DNA from: Candidatus Dojkabacteria bacterium UBA2022
GTDB taxonomy: Bacteria; Patescibacteriota; Dojkabacteria; SC72
DNA: 64,000 nt
Direction: 5' to 3'
Assembly (NCBI GenBank): GCA_002335495.1
Contig: DDBW01000006.1
Location: 72-64,071 of the forward strand
The notes under the pieces were generated by a model that was not told the DNA's origin, ran no database searches, and saw only the letters and a list, made by a program, of their open reading frames with translations. Shown one piece after another: positions 3,484 through 41,154 of this stretch. The position numbers and the translations under genes were made by a program. Each line of letters begins with the position of its first letter. Position 1 is the first letter of the stretch.

Positions 3484-5313
3484 GTGAAAAATTTAACTGC
3501 CTTTACAATTGCAATTCTTCTGTCGTTTCTATATTTTCTTGGATACCATCCTGTTAATGCTGGAGATGTGAAAGCGGTAGTTGATACCGATGTCCTAGCC
3601 TTTATAGATATAGATCCTTTCTCGACGGTCGAGATCGATGAATCTAACGTTGAAGTTGGGCTTTGGAGGGATATTCGCGTTAGGATTACGGATCGTTTTG
3701 GTGATCCTTTGCAGGGGCGTGAGATCTCTTTTTTTGCTGATCCTCCTGGCTCTGCTGAGTTTGAACAACCGCCTGTTACCGATTCTGATGGATGGGCAAA
3801 TGGAAAGTTTAGATCTTTGACTCCGGGAGTTTTTGCTATAAAAGCGAAGGATTCTACATATCCAATTGATATATTTGTTCAACAAAGTGCTTCTGCATAT
3901 GTCTTTCCGATTCCTACCCCTACATTAAAATCCGAACCTTACTACACAAAGGGGACCTCCAATACTGTTGAATGGAATGCTGTTACTGGACTTGATTCCG
4001 ATTACTCGTATGAGGTTCAGGCGGGGCTTGATTCCAGTTTCGGAAGTGTTGTTGCTAGCTCCCCTTTGCTTGAAACTCTAAGCTATACATTTAATGGCCT
4101 CCAAGATGGGAAAATGTACTTTTACCGCGTTAGGAGTGTTAACTCTGGAGGAGGAGTTAGTTCGTGGTCAGAAGTTACTTTCAGCGTGCAAGATGGAACT
4201 GCTCCTAAAATAGTGAAGACGGAATCTCCTAAAGTTGAGAAGATTGGTAATGTACTTAACGTGACTTTTAAATTCACCGCTTCCGATTCCCTATCTCTCA
4301 AAAAAGTATGGTTGTATTGTAATGATAGTAATGGTTTAAGGGAGTGTGGAGCTCTGCAGAACACCGGAAGTTTGTATAGTGCAAGTATTCCTCTTACAGA
4401 TCTTGAGAGAGGTATATTTCAGAATTATAAACCTGAGTATAGTTTCTGTGTGAAGGCGGATGATGAGGCGGGTAACTCAAGTGAAAATTGTGACTTTAAA
4501 GTTGTATTGAAGGATTACATTGATGATGATGTTGATATCCCTGTCTATACTGAAGTTATCAATTATGTCTTTAGAAATGTTAACGAAACGCTAGACTCCA
4601 TTGATACTTTTGTGGCAGGGTATTTTTCTAGTCTCAAGGCTTTAACTTTAACAATGCTTGGTTTTCTTCTCCTAATTCTATCTGCGGTAATATCTTTATT
4701 TGCTGTGTTGGGTAGCTTAACTCTGGTACCGGTTATCATACGTTCTACAGTAACGAGGTTTTCAAGAGTGATTGGGCTAATTAAGCACGGTGCTCCAGTT
4801 GGGGTTGTTTATGATGCTGAAAGCAAAAAGCCTCTGAGGTTTGCAGAGGTGTCTATTTTTGATAATAACAATGTTTTGGTAAGAAGAGATTTTACTAATA
4901 GCAAAGGGGAGTTTACTGCTAATTTGGATATTGGTAGATATAGGGTTTTGGTTGATAGAAAGGGGTATATTTTCCCAAGTTTGATTGTAAGAAAGAGTGA
5001 GGATGAGAATTATAAGCGGGTGTATAGGGGAGAAACGATTATTGTCTCAAAGAGAAACCCAATGTTTATATCTATTCCATTAGATCCTAAGAATATGATG
5101 GGATACGAAGTGAAGAGTATATATAGAAAGCAACGTTTGGTGCATTTCCTTAAGCATCTCAATGTTCTGATTACTGTCGTTGGTTTGTTAATTGCTTTCT
5201 ATGCTTTTGAAAGAAATGTGACTTGGTTCAACCTTATTTTATTGCTTCTGTATATTCCTGTTTTTGGAATTTATCTTAAAGCCGTAGTCAAATTGAATAT
5301 AGGGTTGAAGTAG
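3484..5313 (+). CDS. Large cell-surface protein with signal peptide, FN3/Ig-like repeats, a CarboxypepD_reg-like domain and C-terminal TM helices
   Basis: GTG start. Signal peptide; FYRVRSVNSGGGVSSWSEV FN3-like strand; VYDAESKKPLRFAEVSIFDNNNVLVRRDFTNSKGEF; hydrophobic C-terminus. Confidence 0.55.
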   Translation: MKNLTAFTIAILLSFLYFLGYHPVNAGDVKAVVDTDVLAFIDIDPFSTVEIDESNVEVGLWRDIRVRITDRFGDPLQGREISFFADPPGSAEFEQPPVTDSDGWANGKFRSLTPGVFAIKAKDSTYPIDIFVQQSASAYVFPIPTPTLKSEPYYTKGTSNTVEWNAVTGLDSDYSYEVQAGLDSSFGSVVASSPLLETLSYTFNGLQDGKMYFYRVRSVNSGGGVSSWSEVTFSVQDGTAPKIVKTESPKVEKIGNVLNVTFKFTASDSLSLKKVWLYCNDSNGLRECGALQNTGSLYSASIPLTDLERGIFQNYKPEYSFCVKADDEAGNSSENCDFKVVLKDYIDDDVDIPVYTEVINYVFRNVNETLDSIDTFVAGYFSSLKALTLTMLGFLLLILSAVISLFAVLGSLTLVPVIIRSTVTRFSRVIGLIKHGAPVGVVYDAESKKPLRFAEVSIFDNNNVLVRRDFTNSKGEFTANLDIGRYRVLVDRKGYIFPSLIVRKSEDENYKRVYRGETIIVSKRNPMFISIPLDPKNMMGYEVKSIYRKQRLVHFLKHLNVLITVVGLLIAFYAFERNVTWFNLILLLLYIPVFGIYLKAVVKLNIGLK

Positions 5314-5367
5314 TAATATATTGAAAAAATATTATTATATTGATATCATCTACAGATTTACAGCCGT

Positions 5368-5443
5368 GGATGTGTAGCTCAACTGGTAGAGCAAGCGGCT
5401 CTTAACCGTTAGGTTCAGGGTTCGAGTCCCTGCACATCCACCA
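5368..5443 (+). tRNA. tRNA-Lys (anticodon CTT), CCA encoded
   Basis: Cloverleaf folded by hand: acceptor GGATGTG/CACATCC, anticodon stem AGCGG/CCGTT, loop CTCTTAA, T-arm CAGGG-TTCGAGT-CCCTG, 3' ACCA. Confidence 0.9.
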
Positions 5444-5527
5444 TTCTCATATTGACCTCATCTTATTTTATAAAATGCAAAGAGACCCTTACAGGCCTCT
5501 TCACATTTATATACTTTGTAACCTTAG

Positions 5528-5974
5528 TTACTTAGTAATCTTTATCTCTTTTGCTTTTACTTCCTCAGCCTTTGGCATTTTTATTGTAAGAACCCCGTTC
5601 TCCATCTTAGCCTCTGCCTTATCTGAATCTATCTTGCACGGAAGATTAAATCTCTGTTCGTATGATGATTCCATACTTCTATAGAAATACTTCTTTTTAT
5701 CATCACTCTTTTCTTCCTCTTTAGATGATGCAGATATTGTAAGGACTTCGTTGTCCAAGGATATTTTTACATCCTCCTCTTTAATTCCTGGAAGGGCCAT
5801 TTTAACGAATACCTCATTTCCTTCCTCCCACATATCAGCACTGAGGCTTTTTGATACAGATGGGGTTAGGGTGAAGAAGTCATCAAATGGAGATGTGAAA
5901 AAATCATCCATTATTGACCTGAATGGCCTGTAGATGACTCTGTTATCGTCGTTATTTCTTTTGATTATTTGCAT
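5528..5974 (-). CDS. Hsp20/alpha-crystallin small heat-shock protein
   Basis: 148 aa, alpha-crystallin domain (MALPGIKEEDVKISLDNEVLTI...GVLTIKMPK). Confidence 0.85.
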   Translation of the reverse strand: MQIIKRNNDDNRVIYRPFRSIMDDFFTSPFDDFFTLTPSVSKSLSADMWEEGNEVFVKMALPGIKEEDVKISLDNEVLTISASSKEEEKSDDKKKYFYRSMESSYEQRFNLPCKIDSDKAEAKMENGVLTIKMPKAEEVKAKEIKITK

Positions 5975-6016
5975 TGTATTTAAAAATGATAAATTAAATA
6001 CCGAAGGGATTACCTT

Positions 6017-6043
6017 CTAGCAAAGTATAGCTCCGAGTGCTAA
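6017..6043. promoter_or_regulatory. CIRCE-like inverted repeat (candidate HrcA operator) upstream of hsp20
   Basis: CTAGCAAAG-N9-GAGTGCTAA versus consensus TTAGCACTC-N9-GAGTGCTAA. Right half is perfect, left half 6/9, spacing exact. Lies 43 nt upstream of the hsp20 start. Confidence 0.45.
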
Positions 6044-6060
6044 TTTCTGTCAAGATGGAC

Positions 6061-7005
6061 TCAGAAGTTAAGGATTAACTCTGAGGTTATATAGACTGCA
6101 TATATAAAAAGGAGAATATAACCTTCTTTTCTGGTTATAGTCCTATCATTGATTACCATGAGGGAGAACATGAATATTGTGATTGATAGTAGAATTAAAG
6201 CGGGGATTAAGCTTGTGAAGTTAACAAGCGTAGTTGGTCGTATTAGGATAAGTAGTCCAAGCACCGCTGAGTTAAAGGTTGCACTGCCAATGAAGTTTCC
6301 TGCTGCCAGTTTACCCATATCACCATTCTTACTTCTAAGCATAATTACGATTTCTGGAAGGTTTGTTCCAATTCCCAGTACGAGCAATCCTATTATCAAA
6401 GGTGGGGTATTTAAGGCTTCTGCAAGTCCTAGGGCGGTTGAAACGGTTAGGTTTGCGCTAAGGATCAGTCCTGCTATTCCAAGAATTGATTTGATTAGAA
6501 GGGTGGATAGCTTTCTGTTGCTATGATTATTAGTAATTTCCCATACTTTACTCTTTGCGATTATATATACGACGAAGCCGGAGTACAGAGCGAGGAGGAA
6601 TATTCCTTCCATCCAGTCCATCCTACCGTCAATGAGTACAAGTATCTGTGCATAGATAATTGCTAAGGAGAATAGTACCTCTTTAGTACTATACATCCCT
6701 TTAAAAGGTAGCGATTTATTCTTGATTGCGCTTATCCCTATAACAAGGGTGAGTAGTATTATGGTTGCTCCCACAATATTTCCTACGGATAATCCCGAGT
6801 ATCCGCTTGAAGCTGCATTGATTGCTACGAAGGTTTCTGGAAGGGAAGAGGTCATTGCAAGAATTACAAAACCTATAAGGAAGGTGTTAACTCCAAGTCT
6901 TCGTGATATCCCAACGAAAGATGACTCTATAAGATCTGCTGATTTAACCAGAAGAAATATTAATACAAGAAGTGATCCTATTGTGGGCAGTATATCCATG
7001 TTCAA
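6061..7005 (-). CDS. Ca2+/Na+ (CaCA/YrbG-type) antiporter
   Basis: 314 aa polytopic. Two alpha-repeat regions: GNIVGATIILLTLVIGISAI and GTNLPEIVIML...GNFIGSATFN. Confidence 0.8.
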   Translation of the reverse strand: MNMDILPTIGSLLVLIFLLVKSADLIESSFVGISRRLGVNTFLIGFVILAMTSSLPETFVAINAASSGYSGLSVGNIVGATIILLTLVIGISAIKNKSLPFKGMYSTKEVLFSLAIIYAQILVLIDGRMDWMEGIFLLALYSGFVVYIIAKSKVWEITNNHSNRKLSTLLIKSILGIAGLILSANLTVSTALGLAEALNTPPLIIGLLVLGIGTNLPEIVIMLRSKNGDMGKLAAGNFIGSATFNSAVLGLLILIRPTTLVNFTSLIPALILLSITIFMFSLMVINDRTITRKEGYILLFIYAVYITSELILNF

Positions 7006-27362: not shown

Positions 27363-27719
27363 TTTTTCTTAGTCTTCTAACCTTTTTCTAAAGGTTTTTG
27401 TTACTCATCAATCAGACTGTTACTTAGGCACTCTTAATTTCTTTCACAACATTTTACGCCGCCCTATAATTTCTATCTCTTGTTTTCCATATGGTTTAGG
27501 TGTACCTAGTGAGTAGGAAGCGATGACCCATCCTATACACTTGGTCGCTAGGAAGGATGGAGAGTTAATAGCGAACCCACTCCTAACTACTAGGGGGCGG
27601 TAGTACTTACATTCTCCCAAATAAACCTTATCTCACCTCCATATCTAACTTTTGTATATGAAAGGAGGATAGATAAAGGGTTTAAAATTTTCTCTCTATT
27701 TATTTAATATTCGATCACT

Positions 27720-28316
27720 ATGAAAAGGATATTAGCTAGCTTGGTAACTATAGCTCTGCTTGGAGCCTTAGCCGCAGGTGCAACCTTTGCTGTATTCACG
27801 GATCAGGAAGTGTTAGGAAGCAACACCGTTGCTACCGGAACCCTTGCCCTTACCTTGAATCACTCAGCAGGTAAGCCATATTCGATCTCAAATGCATACC
27901 CAGGGTATGTGGGAAGCTGGGAGCATATTGATATCTTTAATGCTGGTACATTACCTTTTGAAGGCTACCTTAGTTTCAACAAAACTGGGGGAGATACAGG
28001 TTTGTACAATGAGCTTACGATGAAGATAGAGACTGCGGGAGGAGATGGTTTATGTAATACCAATGACTTTGCCGAGAACCTTATATATAACGGTAAGGTC
28101 TCCGCTTTCACACCACAAACTTTGGTAAGTAGCCTTAACTATTGGCACTTAGCAAATGAGGATGATGCAAGTGGCTCTCCAGCAGATAATATAAGGAGCA
28201 ACTGGACAGAGAGACTCTGTCAGCAAGTTGGAGTTGATGTCAGTGCGGGTAATAGCATAATGGGAAAGAGCGTTACTTTCTCAGAAGTTGTTGATGCCAT
28301 GCAGGATAACGACTAA
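27720..28316 (+). CDS. SipW-cognate-signal-peptide protein (TasA/camelysin-like secreted protein)
   Basis: LGALAAGATFAVFTDQEVLGSNTVATGTLAL fits the xGTxAxF[ST]D...N.[FI].[AT]GTL.L signature of the SipW-cognate class; SD AAAGGAGG upstream. Confidence 0.6.
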   Translation: MKRILASLVTIALLGALAAGATFAVFTDQEVLGSNTVATGTLALTLNHSAGKPYSISNAYPGYVGSWEHIDIFNAGTLPFEGYLSFNKTGGDTGLYNELTMKIETAGGDGLCNTNDFAENLIYNGKVSAFTPQTLVSSLNYWHLANEDDASGSPADNIRSNWTERLCQQVGVDVSAGNSIMGKSVTFSEVVDAMQDND

Positions 28317-28371
28317 CGGTTTGATTAGGCTGCACCAGTCTTCCTTGGGTGCAGCCAAGGTATAAGTTTTA

Positions 28372-28911
28372 ATGAAATGTAGTTTGGAAGAAGTAATTAT
28401 TGAGGATAAAAAGGAGAAAGATTATATAAAAACTCTTGTGTACACCCTATTGGGGTTACTATTACTTCTGCTTGCATTTGGAGCCTATGTAAATCGTGAG
28501 CAGATTGCCAAATATAGTATTTATATTGTTCAGTCCGGATCCATGCGTCCAGCCTTAAGAGAAGGAGACCTGATATTCACATATAAAAGTGATGATTACT
28601 CTAAAAATGACATTATCACTTTCAAATCATTAAATAAGCAGGTAATTACACATCGACTTATTGATGTGCTTGATAATGGAAACTATAGAACGAAAGGAGA
28701 TTACAATTCCGTTGTAGATATTGATGAAGTTTCTAAAAAGCGAGTGCTAGGTGAGTATCTCTTTAAGATTCCTCTAATTGGTTACCTCTTCAACTTTATT
28801 AAATCTGATGTCGGTCTTATTCTGCTTGTTTTTGTACCGTGTACGATTTTGATCTATGAAGAAATTAAAAAAATTAAAAGTGAAATTAAAAAGCTTAAAT
28901 CTAAAAAATAG
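28372..28911 (+). CDS. Signal peptidase I, SipW/archaeal-ER type (S26B)
   Basis: SGSMRPALREGDLI catalytic Ser box; N-terminal TM; 179 aa. Confidence 0.75.
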   Translation: MKCSLEEVIIEDKKEKDYIKTLVYTLLGLLLLLLAFGAYVNREQIAKYSIYIVQSGSMRPALREGDLIFTYKSDDYSKNDIITFKSLNKQVITHRLIDVLDNGNYRTKGDYNSVVDIDEVSKKRVLGEYLFKIPLIGYLFNFIKSDVGLILLVFVPCTILIYEEIKKIKSEIKKLKSKK

Positions 28912-29548
28912 TTGGGTTGTAGCTATTGTTACTGTAATTATTATGGTTTTTGTTACAGATACCCAGGCGCAGTTCGCAGCCCGTAGGGTAGTTGGGGGTA
29001 ATACTGTTAGAGCTGCCTCTCTCGACTTTCTCCCGCAAGTTATCGAGGTTAGTAATCTTCGTTCTTCTCTCAACACAGGTAGTCATGAAAGTTTTAAACT
29101 GGATATTCATAACACTAAACAACTTCCTATAAAAGCTTTCGTGACGGCAAATTCTCTCCCTGCTAGCTGTAGGTTGTTGAAAGTAAGGGTTATGGATTAT
29201 AGAGGAGGAGTTCTGTATGAGGGGAATTTAGAAGATCTGGTTATCAATACAGGTGTAATTAAATTTGGAGGAAGGGTAGAGTATAGTTTCGATATCTCGT
29301 CCGATTCACATGATAGTGTTACATGTAGAATTCCCTTGAGTATTACAGCTTGGCAGTCAATATTTACAACTCCAAGGTTTGGTTATGTCGTCGTTAGAAG
29401 AGTGTATAGAAACGTGACCTTTATAAATATCCCTGAGGAAGTACCAGAGGAAGTCACAGAAGGGGGTATTTCTGTCTCCGACCGCGTTGGGGTAGAACGG
29501 GAGGTTAGTATTGAAACTGTTGAAACAATAAATGCTGATTCAAATTAA
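28856..29548 (+). CDS. Second SipW-cognate-signal-peptide protein; 5' end overlaps sipW in another frame
   Basis: KNSWVVAIVTVIIMVFVTDTQAQFAARRVVGGNTVRAASLDF is an n-h signal region followed by the same [FV]TD...GN...LD motif. True start may be the GTG near 28880. Confidence 0.5.
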   Translation: MKKLKKLKVKLKSLNLKNSWVVAIVTVIIMVFVTDTQAQFAARRVVGGNTVRAASLDFLPQVIEVSNLRSSLNTGSHESFKLDIHNTKQLPIKAFVTANSLPASCRLLKVRVMDYRGGVLYEGNLEDLVINTGVIKFGGRVEYSFDISSDSHDSVTCRIPLSITAWQSIFTTPRFGYVVVRRVYRNVTFINIPEEVPEEVTEGGISVSDRVGVEREVSIETVETINADSN

Positions 29549-35923: not shown

Positions 35924-36811
35924 CTATACTTCTTGTCCATTTAATTGACTGCGTATTTCTTTGGCTATTAAGTGAGTGAATTTATGACCTGGAACATCAA
36001 TCTTAAAATGTCCATTTATTCTATATCCAACTAATGCAAGATCTCCAATTGTGTCTAACATTTTATGCATTGCAGGCTCATTCTCAGCTTTTAATGGAGT
36101 TAAAAACTTTGATTCAGTAAATGTTATTACAGGTGATTGTCTAGGGTCTTCGGGAAGAGCTTTATAAACAGATCTTATTCCATTCCATTTAGTCAAATCA
36201 GTAGGATCTAGAGGTGATCTTAAAAAAGTTCTAGCCCATGATACTTTCTTCTCAAAATCATCATTCTCAGAATAATTTACAGTATATGTATTTATCGGGG
36301 CGGGGTATGGAGCTGTTAATTCTATAGATAATCCATTAGAATTTGAAGATAATGTTGCCTTTCTACCCTCAAATTCAGGCTGTTCAAAATAAAGATTTTC
36401 ATGTATCTCTACTACCGTCCTTTTAGCACCTTGTACAGTAATACCCGCTTCTTTTAATGCTTGTGCAAAAGGTTCAGCTGATCCATCCTGAGCTGGGATT
36501 ATTTTTTGATCCAGTTTAATTTCAATATTGTCAATTCCCATCCCCCAAATTGCTGCTAGAAGGTGTTCAACCATTAAGACTTCTGCATCGTCCTTTGTTA
36601 ATGATGTTGTGTGAAGCTCCGTGAAGTTCAAATAATCAGAAAGTGCAGGGATTTTTGTTCCATTAACATTAAAAACAATCCCTGTATTTACCTCGGCTGG
36701 AAGTAATTGCATAGATATCTTAGTAGAGGAAAAAAGAGACTGACCTTCAAAAGTTATTTCTTTAGCTATTGTTCTTTGAGATTTATTACTTTCTTTAAGG
36801 GATAATTTCAT
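35924..36811 (-). CDS. lpxC: UDP-3-O-acyl-N-acetylglucosamine deacetylase (LpxC) homolog
   Basis: VEHLLAAIWGMGIDNIEI (E-H pair), HKMLDTIGDL (His/Asp zinc ligands) and GH near the C-terminus align with E. coli LpxC catalytic positions. Confidence 0.7.
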   Translation of the reverse strand: MKLSLKESNKSQRTIAKEITFEGQSLFSSTKISMQLLPAEVNTGIVFNVNGTKIPALSDYLNFTELHTTSLTKDDAEVLMVEHLLAAIWGMGIDNIEIKLDQKIIPAQDGSAEPFAQALKEAGITVQGAKRTVVEIHENLYFEQPEFEGRKATLSSNSNGLSIELTAPYPAPINTYTVNYSENDDFEKKVSWARTFLRSPLDPTDLTKWNGIRSVYKALPEDPRQSPVITFTESKFLTPLKAENEPAMHKMLDTIGDLALVGYRINGHFKIDVPGHKFTHLIAKEIRSQLNGQEV

Positions 36812-40320: not shown

Positions 40321-41154
40321 TTGAAACCCTCCGACATTGTTAAAATTCAAACGATTGTATTAGACCCCAACCTTGATGTTATAGCTACCTCTATCAAAGA
40401 GTATAAAGGATATAACTTCTACGACCTTTTAAGCCCACCTAAAAGTGCGATACGAGATGCCATGCGATCCCTAAAAGAAATGCAAAGCATAAGTGCGGAT
40501 ATATCAATATCAACACCTTTAACCCCTATAGAGCAGTACTCCGTGGTGATACTGCGAACTCCGTCCCACTACTTCCTAACCCTTGTACCTTTAACTCCAG
40601 CCATGCAACTTGTTGAAACGGTTACTAAGTTAGAAGAATATGCCTATACTGACCAACTCACAGGAGCACTGAACCGCCATGCATACTGGAAACTTCTAGA
40701 AACCATGCTTTACGAAATAGGTCGTGAGAACCTTGGATTAGGGGTTATCTTTTTAGATATCGATGGACTTAAGGGAATTAACACAAACTCAGGATATGCA
40801 GAAGGAGATAGCACAATCGCTTTTGTCGCAAAGTGTGCTCAAAAGAGTCTTCGAAAATACGATCTCCTTATTAGAATGGGAGGTGACGAGTTTCTAGCTA
40901 TATTCAGAATCGATCCCAAAAAAGACTTCACAGTTGAAGATATGGCTATGCGTATTTTAAACACGGTTCGCAGAGAAAGCGGTGGAAATATATCTGTCTC
41001 GATGGGGGCAAACTATATAAAACCAGGAGTTATTCATACTCTTGTTTCAGGTCCTAAATGGAAAAAAACCTGGAATAATCTATATAACGATCTTGATTCT
41101 AAACTTCGTAAAGCAAAAAAAGAGGGAAAGAACCAAGCGATTCTTTCCCTCTAG
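40321..41154 (+). CDS. GGDEF-domain diguanylate cyclase with N-terminal sensory region
   Basis: TTG start; RMGGDEFLAIF GGDEF motif, LTGALNRHAY. Confidence 0.75.
   Translation: MKPSDIVKIQTIVLDPNLDVIATSIKEYKGYNFYDLLSPPKSAIRDAMRSLKEMQSISADISISTPLTPIEQYSVVILRTPSHYFLTLVPLTPAMQLVETVTKLEEYAYTDQLTGALNRHAYWKLLETMLYEIGRENLGLGVIFLDIDGLKGINTNSGYAEGDSTIAFVAKCAQKSLRKYDLLIRMGGDEFLAIFRIDPKKDFTVEDMAMRILNTVRRESGGNISVSMGANYIKPGVIHTLVSGPKWKKTWNNLYNDLDSKLRKAKKEGKNQAILSL

Follow-up and report, generated by a model that had tools for sequence, protein, structure and literature searches.

Three co-directional genes on the + strand occupy positions 27720-29548 of the window, by which we mean the whole 64-kb stretch of DNA that was analysed, from a member of the Dojkabacteria (WS6, CPR). 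The original prediction placed an S26B-type peptidase between two secreted proteins of about 200-230 aa, and the reading frames found here, of 198, 179 and 230 aa, confirm that arrangement. The genes and the features of their products are as follows, with a slash marking each cleavage site.

27720-28316, + strand: ORF A, 198 aa, a TasA/camelysin-family secreted protein and putative major fibre subunit
27720-27791, + strand: signal peptide of ORF A, residues 1-24, with predicted cleavage TFA/VFTDQ
28372-28911, + strand: ORF B (sipW), 179 aa, including SGSMRPALREGDLI, an ER/archaeal-type (S26B) signal peptidase I
28856-28911, + strand: stretch shared out of frame (+1) by sipW and ORF C, A-rich with Lys in both frames, read from the sequence
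28856-29548, + strand: ORF C, 230 aa, apparently a divergent TasA-family paralogue and putative minor or nucleator subunit
After residue 38 of ORF C, + strand: cleavage TQA/QFAARR, predicted from the alignment to ORF A

A TasA-like protein beside a SipW-type peptidase

To place ORF A we compared it with curated family models, and it scores above the cut-offs of both Pfam PF12389 (TasA/camelysin, Peptidase_M73; 23.9 bits, cut-off 22.5, residues 2-79 only) and TIGR04088 cognate_SipW (23.5 bits, cut-off 19), with PF12389 also matched by 24 of 29 ORF A homologues. The homologues (n = 57, identity 46-67%) carry the NCBI name 'TasA family protein', and the ORF A-like subunit is strongly conserved, at about 60% identity across the Dojkabacteria. 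When the ORF A family was aligned to B. subtilis TasA with hhalign, the match ran from the signal peptide to residue ~110 (probability 92%, E = 6e-7); PF12389 and TasA cover only the N-terminal 80-110 residues of ORF A. The alignment places A27/A28 of TasA on A24/V25 of ORF A, and A28 is the first residue of the TasA chain in the fibre structure 8AUR. Phe26, the aromatic residue at P2' of the predicted site, is almost invariant across the family; an aromatic P2' residue is reported to make TasA a poor LepB substrate and dependent on SipW (PMC10269814). A Cys pair is conserved in the ORF A family, and another in the ORF C family. The AF2 model of ORF A is all-beta (pLDDT 81.6), and its best PDB neighbours in Foldseek are donor-strand filament subunits, namely FimG, AbpA (7ueg, probability 0.97), the Sulfolobus thread and CanA, the similarity to these donor-strand pilins being weak (TM about 0.3). 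Among PDB sequences, the profile of the ORF A family found nothing relevant.

The product of sipW exceeds the cut-off of the archaeal/ER-type signal peptidase I model TIGR02228 sigpep_I_arch (91.5 bits, cut-off 51.85) and scores 108.4 bits against the Bacillus SipW equivalog NF046067, below the cut-off of 190. It is the same type of enzyme as Bacillus SipW, though not its equivalog. Ser57 (SGSM), His94 (THR), Asp110 (GDxN) and Asp116 are invariant in nine relatives, so the predicted catalytic pair is Ser-His, not Ser-Lys, with a conserved Asp. Hydropathy predicts two transmembrane segments, TM1 at about residues 19-41 and TM2 at about residues 147-164, followed by a Lys-rich cytoplasmic tail.

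One may ask whether this enzyme is just the general type I signal peptidase of the cell, with ORF A and ORF C being ordinary secreted proteins (camelysin-like proteases or cell-surface proteins, for example) whose adjacency carries no enzyme-substrate meaning. Such a reading would agree with the window, in which we found no LepB-type gene, LepB-like motif or second signal peptidase, and with the reduced genomes of CPR bacteria. PF12389 is also formally named as a metallo-endopeptidase family, the Foldseek support for a filament fold is weak, and SipW-type signals occur on unrelated passengers as well, including a 724-aa protein at one related locus (L024) and a LamG-like protein at another (L029). 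We nevertheless regard this explanation as unlikely. The tasA-like/sipW pair stays together in about 20 distinct Dojkabacteria loci, with the flanking genes otherwise all different, and the peptidase repeatedly overlaps with or is fused to a substrate. A scan of all ORFs of the window for the SipW-cognate motif returned ORF A and ORF C only, besides two obvious chance matches, and conservation extends to the aromatic P2' residue that is typical of substrates dependent on SipW. ORF A, as read from its sequence, has no HExxH motif, and both TasA and CalY are now seen as fibre subunits (PMC9674648, PMC10151520).

A metagenome scan with three SipW queries returned only eight loci, mostly distant. 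We consider it probable that the locus is a relative of the Bacillus biofilm-fibre operon, in which the peptidase would process secreted subunits that assemble into fibres. The original prediction had likewise named SipW with TasA-family substrates, kin of tapA-sipW-tasA, and it is upheld by the curated cut-offs, the alignment to TasA and the conservation across those ~20 loci. The core operon is of an already recognised type; what is new is the variant in which peptidase and substrate overlap or are fused.

ORF C and its overlap with sipW

The check proposed with the original prediction, a search with the SipW-cognate and TasA/camelysin models, succeeded for ORF A and gave no match for ORF C. 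Indeed, ORF C matches no Pfam or NCBIfam family, its family (six members) has no match to TIGR04088 even at E values up to 10, nor to the other NCBIfam models, and a direct hhalign comparison of the family with TasA also gave no match. The ORF C and ORF A families, when aligned to each other by hhalign, match with a probability of 97.2% (E = 3.3e-11), which stays at 96.6% (E = 5.1e-10) after removal of both signal peptides, and the two families show reciprocal HMM matches. These comparisons show ORF C to be a divergent paralogue of ORF A, tied to the TasA family through profile-profile homology to ORF A only. The same alignment bears on the SipW-cognate motif that had been claimed for ORF C: its homology to the signal motif of ORF A is real, with TFA/VFTDQEVLGSNTVATGTL of ORF A aligned to TQA/QFAARRVVGGNTVRAASL of ORF C, but the register read as VFVTD was wrong by six residues. 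The position equivalent to P2' is Phe or Tyr in all six family members, in which Cys105, Cys157 and the motif AWQxIF are invariant as well.

Only five relatives of ORF C were found among 1.8-5.8 billion proteins. The AF2 model has a core (pLDDT 85-94) that resembles an Ig/PapD/macroglobulin-like beta-sandwich, followed by an acidic disordered tail. Many Dojkabacteria have no ORF C downstream of sipW, and hence it is not essential to the tasA-like/sipW pair.

That ORF C must start inside sipW, as had been predicted, holds: ATG 28856 (56-nt overlap) and GTG 28880 (32 nt) are the sole in-frame starts before the hydrophobic core, and the next in-frame ATG, at 28943, already lies within that core. 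GTG 28880, from which the overlap would be 32 nt, coincides with the position of the ATG at a related locus (L014). Seven lineages carry a second substrate gene that begins in the +1 frame within the 3' end of sipW, with an overlap of 20-56 nt in the window and in L011, L014, L016, L024 and L025; in L033 the overlap is also in the +1 frame. Because seven lineages share this arrangement, each with its own start codon, we rejected sequencing error as its cause. Two further relatives, whose fused genes lie outside what had originally been noted, encode SipW and a substrate in frame as one polypeptide (L013, 351 aa; L018, 700 aa), and beyond TM2 of SipW these fusions keep a TM segment and an SFA/SF or TFA/LFTDQ site. 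There is no Shine-Dalgarno sequence at the start of ORF C, which we read as a sign neither for nor against the coupled or reinitiated translation that had been suggested as possible, since Shine-Dalgarno sites are rarely used in this genome (52 of 62 ORFs are without one).

The fusions raise the question of whether SipW and ORF C are partly made as one polypeptide in this organism too, through a +1/-2 ribosomal frameshift or transcriptional slippage on A-runs, such that the peptidase frees its own fused substrate. Candidate runs at the end of sipW are AAA AAA TAG at 28903-28911 and the A7 at about 28866-28872, and a one-base change in the A6 run before the stop, as read from the sequence, would join the two frames. 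The same fusion is encoded in frame by L013 and L018 with the catalytic residues, the Lys-rich loop, the third TM segment and the cleavage motif intact, and the SipW tree groups L013 in one clade with the window and L014. The predicted topology fits as well, with TM2 running out-to-in, a cytoplasmic loop and a signal anchor running in-to-out, and the frame is +1 in all seven overlapping lineages, which common ancestry can however account for. Against this, an ATG of its own is present in each overlapping lineage (in the window together with a GTG), just past a stop codon in the +1 frame and just ahead of the n-region; independent initiation would be expected to give such a pattern, which frameshifting does not require. 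Any Lys-rich tract in a genome of 36% GC can be expected to contain A-runs, and we identified neither a stimulatory structure nor a conserved slippery heptamer. We therefore hold a joint polypeptide in this organism to be quite improbable and favour separate initiation of ORF C within sipW.

It is very improbable that ORF C is a decaying remnant of an ancestral SipW-substrate fusion, split by a frameshift and now untranslated or non-functional, for its very few relatives, its loss in many lineages, its start buried in sipW without a Shine-Dalgarno sequence (the norm here) and the existence of fused forms are set against a frame intact over 230 codons, a start codon kept in all seven overlapping lineages, a confidently modelled core, and a Cys pair, AWQxIF and donor-strand motif kept across six members at only 19-27% identity, which points to purifying selection.

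Promoter-like and RNA elements

Upstream of ORF A and between ORF A and sipW lie four further features, of which the riboswitch-like element and the inter-gene hairpin are observations that go beyond the original prediction.

27443-27470, + strand: TTCACA-16-TATAAT, a sigma-70-type promoter-like site that precedes ORF A by about 250 nt; agrees with the consensus at 11 of 12 positions, a consensus match only
27507-27592, + strand: within the 5' leader of ORF A, a probable riboswitch aptamer of c-di-GMP-II-like type; RF01786, full model 1-84
27622-27684, + strand: leader hairpin with CCUCC...GGAGG arms, then a U-rich tract; RNAfold -18 kcal/mol; candidate terminator or expression platform
28328-28356, + strand: inter-gene hairpin GGCUGCACC-loop-GGUGCAGCC, lying past ORF A and ahead of sipW; putatively an attenuator or a 3' stabiliser

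Relatives have a strong TTGACA-N17 box equally far from the ATG of their tasA-like gene. The RF01786 match in the window scores 40.6 bits, below the gathering score of 53.5 (E = 1e-7 to 4e-7), and a match over the full model length upstream of the tasA-like gene of L010 scores 52.7 bits against the same gathering score (E = 5e-11). At L025 the match is weaker (17.9 bits), and core motifs are seen at L022. The segments UCGC and GCGA in the window are complementary, as are GCAC and GUGC in the Rfam consensus, and the covariance model does not score the pseudoknot; we take UCGC and GCGA to be the putative halves of the c-di-GMP-II pseudoknot, formed by the P3 loop with the 3' single strand. A GGDEF protein is encoded in the window, so that c-di-GMP is plausibly made. 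In the literature searched, we found no link of a c-di-GMP-II riboswitch to TasA/SipW or to CPR bacteria.

RNA folding of the leader revealed no clear ligand-dependent alternative fold, and the ORF A leader fold is no more stable than that of shuffled sequence; hence we treat the leader hairpin as a candidate only and claim no model of an expression platform. The sequence GAAAGGAGG, about 50 nt upstream of ORF A, could be taken for a distant Shine-Dalgarno or a STAB-SD-like 5' stabiliser. We rejected this as the primary reading because the sequence is the 3' arm of the CCUCC...GGAGG hairpin, AAGGAGG is not enriched in the window and Shine-Dalgarno sites are rarely used. The inter-gene hairpin lies directly 3' of the tasA-like stop codon in 15 aligned loci, and for five of its nine pairs at least one sequence carries a compensatory change.

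Proposed mechanism and comparison with known systems

We propose that ORF A is the abundant subunit, which would be exported through Sec and cut by the adjacent SipW after Ala24 (TFA/VF, with an aromatic P2'). The new N-terminal strand of ORF A (VFTDQEVLGSNTVATGTLAL) may then act as a donor strand and join one beta-sandwich subunit to the next along a fibre, as happens with TasA of B. subtilis. ORF C would be a fast-evolving paralogue that retains the signal and donor-strand region on an Ig-like body of another kind; produced with SipW in small amounts, it would probably act as a TapA-like or second-CalY-like nucleator, tip or anchor. Its start inside sipW may be explained by the Lys-rich tail of SipW and the Lys-rich n-region of ORF C sharing A-rich DNA in two frames. 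The promoter and the long leader with its c-di-GMP-II-like aptamer would control transcription, and the conserved inter-gene hairpin would reduce the transcription that continues past ORF A into sipW and ORF C. More speculatively, and we would not put this higher than a tentative suggestion, the dedicated peptidase and the minor fibre subunit may form one physical unit in Dojkabacteria, encoded as a single chain in certain lineages and by +1-overlapping genes in the rest. Each SipW would then enter the membrane beside one nucleator, cut that adjacent nucleator in cis and mark the start site of a c-di-GMP-controlled TasA-like fibre.

The prevailing view is that CPR bacteria live attached to other cells; apart from type IV pili, little is known of their surface structures. 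In Dojkabacteria, a conserved TasA-like subunit with a peptidase of its own points to a second filament type, possibly one that is switched by c-di-GMP. That peptidase and substrate recurrently overlap or are fused is strong evidence, of the gene-fusion kind, for SipW-type enzymes acting on substrates encoded next to them, and it also gives a simple system in which to test whether a signal peptidase can cleave in cis. If true, a self-releasing fusion of signal peptidase and substrate would be a new coupling of secretion, processing and filament nucleation.

In Clostridia, c-di-GMP-II riboswitches (RF01786) control pilus or adhesin genes, such as pilA1 of C. difficile. The locus described here resembles these in having such an aptamer in the long 5' leader of a gene for a putative surface filament, and in the presence of a GGDEF protein in the organism; it differs in the sub-gathering score (40.6 versus 53.5 bits), the variant sequence of the putative pseudoknot and the phylum. 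The archaeal bundling pili AbpA/AbpB of Pyrobaculum calidifontis, type 1 pili, Sulfolobus threads and cannulae consist of subunits with a beta-sandwich or jelly-roll fold whose N-terminus supplies a donor strand, and their structural similarity to the ORF A model is weak (TM about 0.3). Type 1 pili differ in being a chaperone-usher system, and AbpA/AbpB pair a major subunit with a larger minor protein in an ABP operon that has no dedicated peptidase (PMC9245690).

Parallels are also found in Bacillus. In B. cereus, sipW-calY1-bc1280-calY2 also places two TasA/camelysin paralogues beside one SipW, and one CalY paralogue is thought to fill the role of TapA (PMC10151520). The locus described here differs in lacking a bc1280-like gene, in having sipW placed between the two paralogues and overlapping the second one, and in the far greater divergence of the paralogues, whose relationship is detectable by profile-profile comparison only.

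In tapA-sipW-tasA of B. subtilis, as here, an ER/archaeal-type peptidase lies beside a TasA-family major subunit and an accessory protein of low abundance (presumed low in our case), the N-terminus of the accessory protein resembles the donor strand of the major subunit, and the cleavage sites share the context A-x-A/x-F-[TN]-D...G-T-L. In both, substrate and peptidase genes overlap, and the Ig-like body of the accessory protein contains a disulfide, a predicted one in the case of ORF C (PMC10151520). The gene order of tasA-like, sipW and accessory paralogue is unlike either Bacillus order, and the overlap of 32-56 nt is at the 3' end of sipW, whereas in B. subtilis a stop/start overlap is found at its 5' end. 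ORF A has 198 aa compared with 261 aa for B. subtilis TasA, with the match in the N-terminal half only, and SipW scores 108 bits against the Bacillus equivalog cut-off of 190, in a host that is a CPR bacterium. TasA of B. subtilis receives the N-terminus of TapA, a protein about 100 times rarer that has a disulfide-bonded Ig fold and whose gene overlaps sipW (PMC10151520). Whereas the accessory protein of B. subtilis is TapA, ORF C appears from its profile homology to be a paralogue within the TasA family, and it would be an analogue of TapA in function only, homologous instead to the TasA-like ORF A.

A SipW-type peptidase among putative TasA-type substrates

Three co-directional genes occupy 27720-29548 of the window (G+C ~36%), the interval in which the original prediction had placed a SipW-type peptidase flanked by two of its substrates:

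27720-28316, + strand: ORF A (tasA-like), 198 aa, matching the TasA/camelysin and SipW-cognate signal models
28372-28911, + strand: ORF B (sipW), 179 aa, matching TIGR02228
28856-29548, + strand: ORF C, 230 aa, with no curated family

The direction of the genes and the curated models for ORF A and ORF B bear out this cluster, and its reading as a SipW-type peptidase with TasA-type substrates was essentially right. ORF B scores 91.5 bits against TIGR02228 (archaeal/ER-type signal peptidase I; cut-off 51.85) and 108 bits, under the cut-off of 190, against the Bacillus SipW equivalog. Nine aligned relatives all have Ser57 (SGSM), His94 (THR), Asp110 and Asp116; judged from this alignment, the catalytic residues are of the Ser-His type expected for S26B, and the model score together with Ser57, His94 and Asp110 upholds the assignment to that family.

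The window is part of a Candidatus Dojkabacteria (WS6; candidate phyla radiation, CPR) genome, and database proteins 100% identical to ORF A and ORF C bear this name. The surrounding genes (HD hydrolase, GNAT acetyltransferase, serine hydrolase/DinB, NUDIX, methyltransferase) are unrelated to the cluster. Elsewhere in the window, a strong match to LpxC, the deacetylase of the lipid A pathway, lies at 35924-36811 (- strand; PF03331, 182 bits), which is unexpected in bacteria usually considered to have no LPS.

The tasA-like/sipW pair recurs in ~20 distinct Dojkabacteria-type loci, with flanking genes that change between loci, and what stands next to sipW also differs.

Neighbours of sipW in the window and in related loci from other genomes and metagenomes (L numbers)
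Nothing related 3' of sipW: L001, L003, L005, L007, L010, L017, L020, L022, L027
ORF C homologue 3' of sipW: window, L011, L014, L016, L025
Passenger with SipW-type signal (SFFVDRETIENNSVSAG), 724-aa multi-domain protein: L024, 5203-7374
Passenger with SipW-type signal (ASFFSDTETSVDNTFVAG), LamG-like protein: L029, 2504-3298
Passenger with SipW-type signal, 502 aa, between the tasA-like gene and sipW: L028, 4773-6281
sipW and ORF C-like substrate in one frame, 351 aa: L013, 29-1084
sipW and ORF C-like substrate in one frame, 700 aa: L018 (NCBI MAG), 4238-6340

The three passengers resemble interchangeable tip or adhesin modules. Downstream of the cassette, L003 (6236-7408), L010 (6389-7575) and L011 (6778-7981) share a gene pair absent from the window. 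One gene codes for a small Cys-rich protein (~91-100 aa) that weakly matches Pacifastin_I, the other for a protein of ~270-295 aa in which no known domain was recognised. In L003, L010, L016, L017, L020 and L022 the cassette is followed at 2-3 kb by a tmRNA gene; the window contains none.

ORF A and its divergent relative ORF C

ORF A passes the curated cut-offs of both PF12389 (TasA/camelysin; 23.9 bits, cut-off 22.5) and TIGR04088 (SipW-dependent signal; 23.5 bits, cut-off 19), and its protein is named 'TasA family protein' by NCBI. Against a B. subtilis TasA sequence identical to PDB chain 8AUR_A (first residue Ala28), the profile of the ORF A family aligns over a stretch that extends from the signal peptide as far as about residue 110 (probability 92%, E 6e-7). 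The alignment pairs TWA/AFND of TasA with TFA/VFTD of ORF A (slash, predicted cleavage site), and cleavage of ORF A is therefore predicted after Ala24. Phe26, the second residue after the cut (P2'), is nearly invariant among 29 aligned homologues; an aromatic P2' residue is given in PMC10269814 as the reason why TasA is a poor LepB substrate and depends on SipW. AF2 gives a confident, all-beta model for ORF A (pLDDT 81.6, pTM 0.76), whose top PDB neighbours are donor-strand filament subunits, namely FimG, AbpA (7ueg, a TasA homologue; probability 0.97), the Sulfolobus thread and CanA. Since these neighbours have weak E-values (2e-3 to 5e-3) and TM reaches just ~0.3, the predicted resemblance to such subunits is suggestive only.

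ORF C matches no curated family in Pfam or NCBIfam, and when sets of 5.8 and 1.84 billion proteins were searched, only five relatives came to light. The resulting six-member family nevertheless aligns with the 29-member ORF A family in profile-profile comparison (probability 97.2%, E 3.3e-11), and, because an effect of signal-peptide composition had to be excluded, we repeated the comparison with both signal peptides cut off (96.6%, E 5.1e-10, 80 columns). In both families a pair of Cys residues is invariant and the C-terminal strand ends in A-x-Q. From these profiles we conclude that ORF C is a divergent paralogue of ORF A. The alignment sets TFA/VFTDQEVLGSNTVATGTL of ORF A against TQA/QFAARRVVGGNTVRAASL of ORF C, so that the 'VFVTD' originally read as the ORF C motif, six residues upstream of this register, is a coincidence. 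At P2' all six members carry Phe or Tyr; they do not conserve the Asp of FTD. In the AF2 model the core of ORF C (~residues 70-190; pLDDT 85-94) resembles Ig, PapD and macroglobulin-type sandwiches, and an acidic, disordered tail makes up the final 35 residues. The ORF C family gave no match to TIGR04088 and no direct alignment with TasA. The SipW-cognate signal claimed for both proteins thus holds by this model for ORF A and not for ORF C, and TasA-family membership, direct for ORF A, extends to ORF C only through its homology to ORF A.

Overlap and fusion of sipW with its neighbour

ORF C has only two in-frame starts before its hydrophobic core, ATG 28856 (56-nt overlap) and GTG 28880 (32 nt), and the predicted out-of-frame start inside sipW is thereby confirmed. 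GTG 28880 occupies the position of the ATG in L014, the closest relative, where the overlap is also 32 nt. A substrate gene begins within the 3' end of sipW in seven lineages: by 20-56 nt in the window, L011, L014, L016, L024 and L025, and in L033, where a substrate-like gene with its own start codon overlaps the first sipW in the +1 frame. The substrate frame is +1 and the start codon is kept in 7/7, and in the window, L011, L014, L016, L024 and L025 this codon closely follows a +1-frame stop codon. In L033, which is a metagenome contig of more distant relationship, the substrate-like gene stands between two sipW paralogues (3-368, 337-936, 952-1479).

The overlapped DNA is A-rich. One frame yields the cytoplasmic tail of SipW (EEIKKIKSEIKKLKSKK), the other the n-region of the signal peptide of ORF C (MKKLKKLKVKLKSLNLKNS), and both stretches are rich in Lys; dual coding may be cheap here, because both segments need just cytoplasmic positive charge. 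Among window ORFs of at least 150 aa, 52 of 62 lack even a 4-mer Shine-Dalgarno match upstream, and a TATAAT-like box often stands 5-12 nt ahead of the ATG. This suggests that leaderless or Shine-Dalgarno-independent initiation is widespread here. The missing Shine-Dalgarno sequence before ORF C (and ORF A) is therefore normal and is no argument for reinitiation.

In the L013 fusion, SipW is followed by ...EAKKLSKKNKGGGK, AAIALLLVLLLPISSSFA/SFSAKRTLAQNTIS... and the ORF C-like body; in L018, by ...KEINLRKQAIR, a TM segment, ...TFA/LFTDQSQIKQNSVSTGIL..., the ORF C-like body and a long acidic tail. Both keep the catalytic Ser and His as well as the substrate's own TM segment and cleavage motif, and the topology is consistent, with TM2 running out-to-in, the basic loop cytoplasmic, a third TM in-to-out and the cleavage motif outside. 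These fusions argue for an action of SipW on the substrate next to it, and suggest that the fused forms may be self-processing peptidase-substrate proteins that free the substrate by self-cleavage. A neighbour-joining tree of SipW, built without bootstrap, places L013 in one clade with the window and L014 and intermingles the fused, overlapping and 'none' states, so fusion, fission and loss have probably happened repeatedly. Frameshifting that joins SipW and ORF C in the window itself is quite improbable: changing a single base of the A6 run ahead of the sipW stop would restore the fusion, but start codons are retained in the overlapping lineages, which makes independent initiation of ORF C the simpler reading.

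RNA elements and comparison with known systems

Four candidate elements accompany ORF A:

27443-27470, + strand: promoter-like site, 11/12 consensus positions, within the 357-nt region upstream of ORF A
27507-27592, + strand: c-di-GMP-II-like aptamer, full-length match to RF01786
27622-27684, + strand: leader hairpin CCUCC...GAAAGGAGG with U-rich tract, candidate terminator
28328-28356, + strand: hairpin GGCUGCACC-loop-GGUGCAGCC, directly 3' of the ORF A stop codon

The aptamer scores 40.6 bits (E 1e-7), below the gathering threshold of 53.5, which is why a default Rfam scan of the window contains no such match. A copy upstream of the tasA-like gene in L010 (4740-4824) reaches 52.7 bits (E 5e-11) against the same threshold; L025 (3776-3863) matches more weakly than either, and L022 (1-60) has the core motifs. 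In these copies the consensus GCAC/GUGC is replaced by UCGC/GCGA with complementarity kept; we take these segments to be the RF01786 pseudoknot, whose pairing is outside the model's scoring, and the putative pseudoknot would thus carry compensatory changes relative to the consensus. A GGDEF diguanylate cyclase domain protein encoded at 40321-41154 (+ strand; PF00990, 80 bits) makes c-di-GMP signalling plausible for this CPR bacterium.

A TTGACA-N17 promoter box ~200-250 nt upstream is common to all loci, so a long leader is general and its content varies by lineage: the CCUCC hairpin and U-rich tract lie ~40-100 nt before the tasA-like ATG in the window, L001, L005, L018 and L027, and in other loci its place is taken, at that distance, by a GCAUA-uAAGGaau-UAUGC hairpin. 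Folding of the ORF A leader yielded no convincing ligand-dependent switch. The hairpin after ORF A is kept in 15 aligned loci (the window and 14 others), with compensatory changes at 5/9 pairs; the stem sequence (GGCUGCAyC-loop-GrUGCAGCC) is conserved, with compensatory variants in a few lineages, and a U-tract follows in some loci, not in the window. It is a putative attenuator or 3' stabiliser that would hold ORF A in excess over SipW and ORF C, paralleling the ~100:1 TasA:TapA of Bacillus (PMC10151520).

PF12389 homologues had already been noted in Patescibacteria (PMC9245690), and our literature searches found no paper tying SipW to CPR or a c-di-GMP riboswitch to TasA/SipW. What appears new is the orphan ORF C family as a putative second subunit and the riboswitch-like leader before a tasA-like gene; the recurrent 3' overlap or fusion of peptidase with substrate is also new. 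The cluster would work like tapA-sipW-tasA of B. subtilis and sipW-calY1-bc1280-calY2 of B. cereus. In the former, tapA overlaps sipW, and TapA, a scarce protein with a disulfide-bonded Ig fold, nucleates TasA fibres by donating its N-terminus (PMC10151520).
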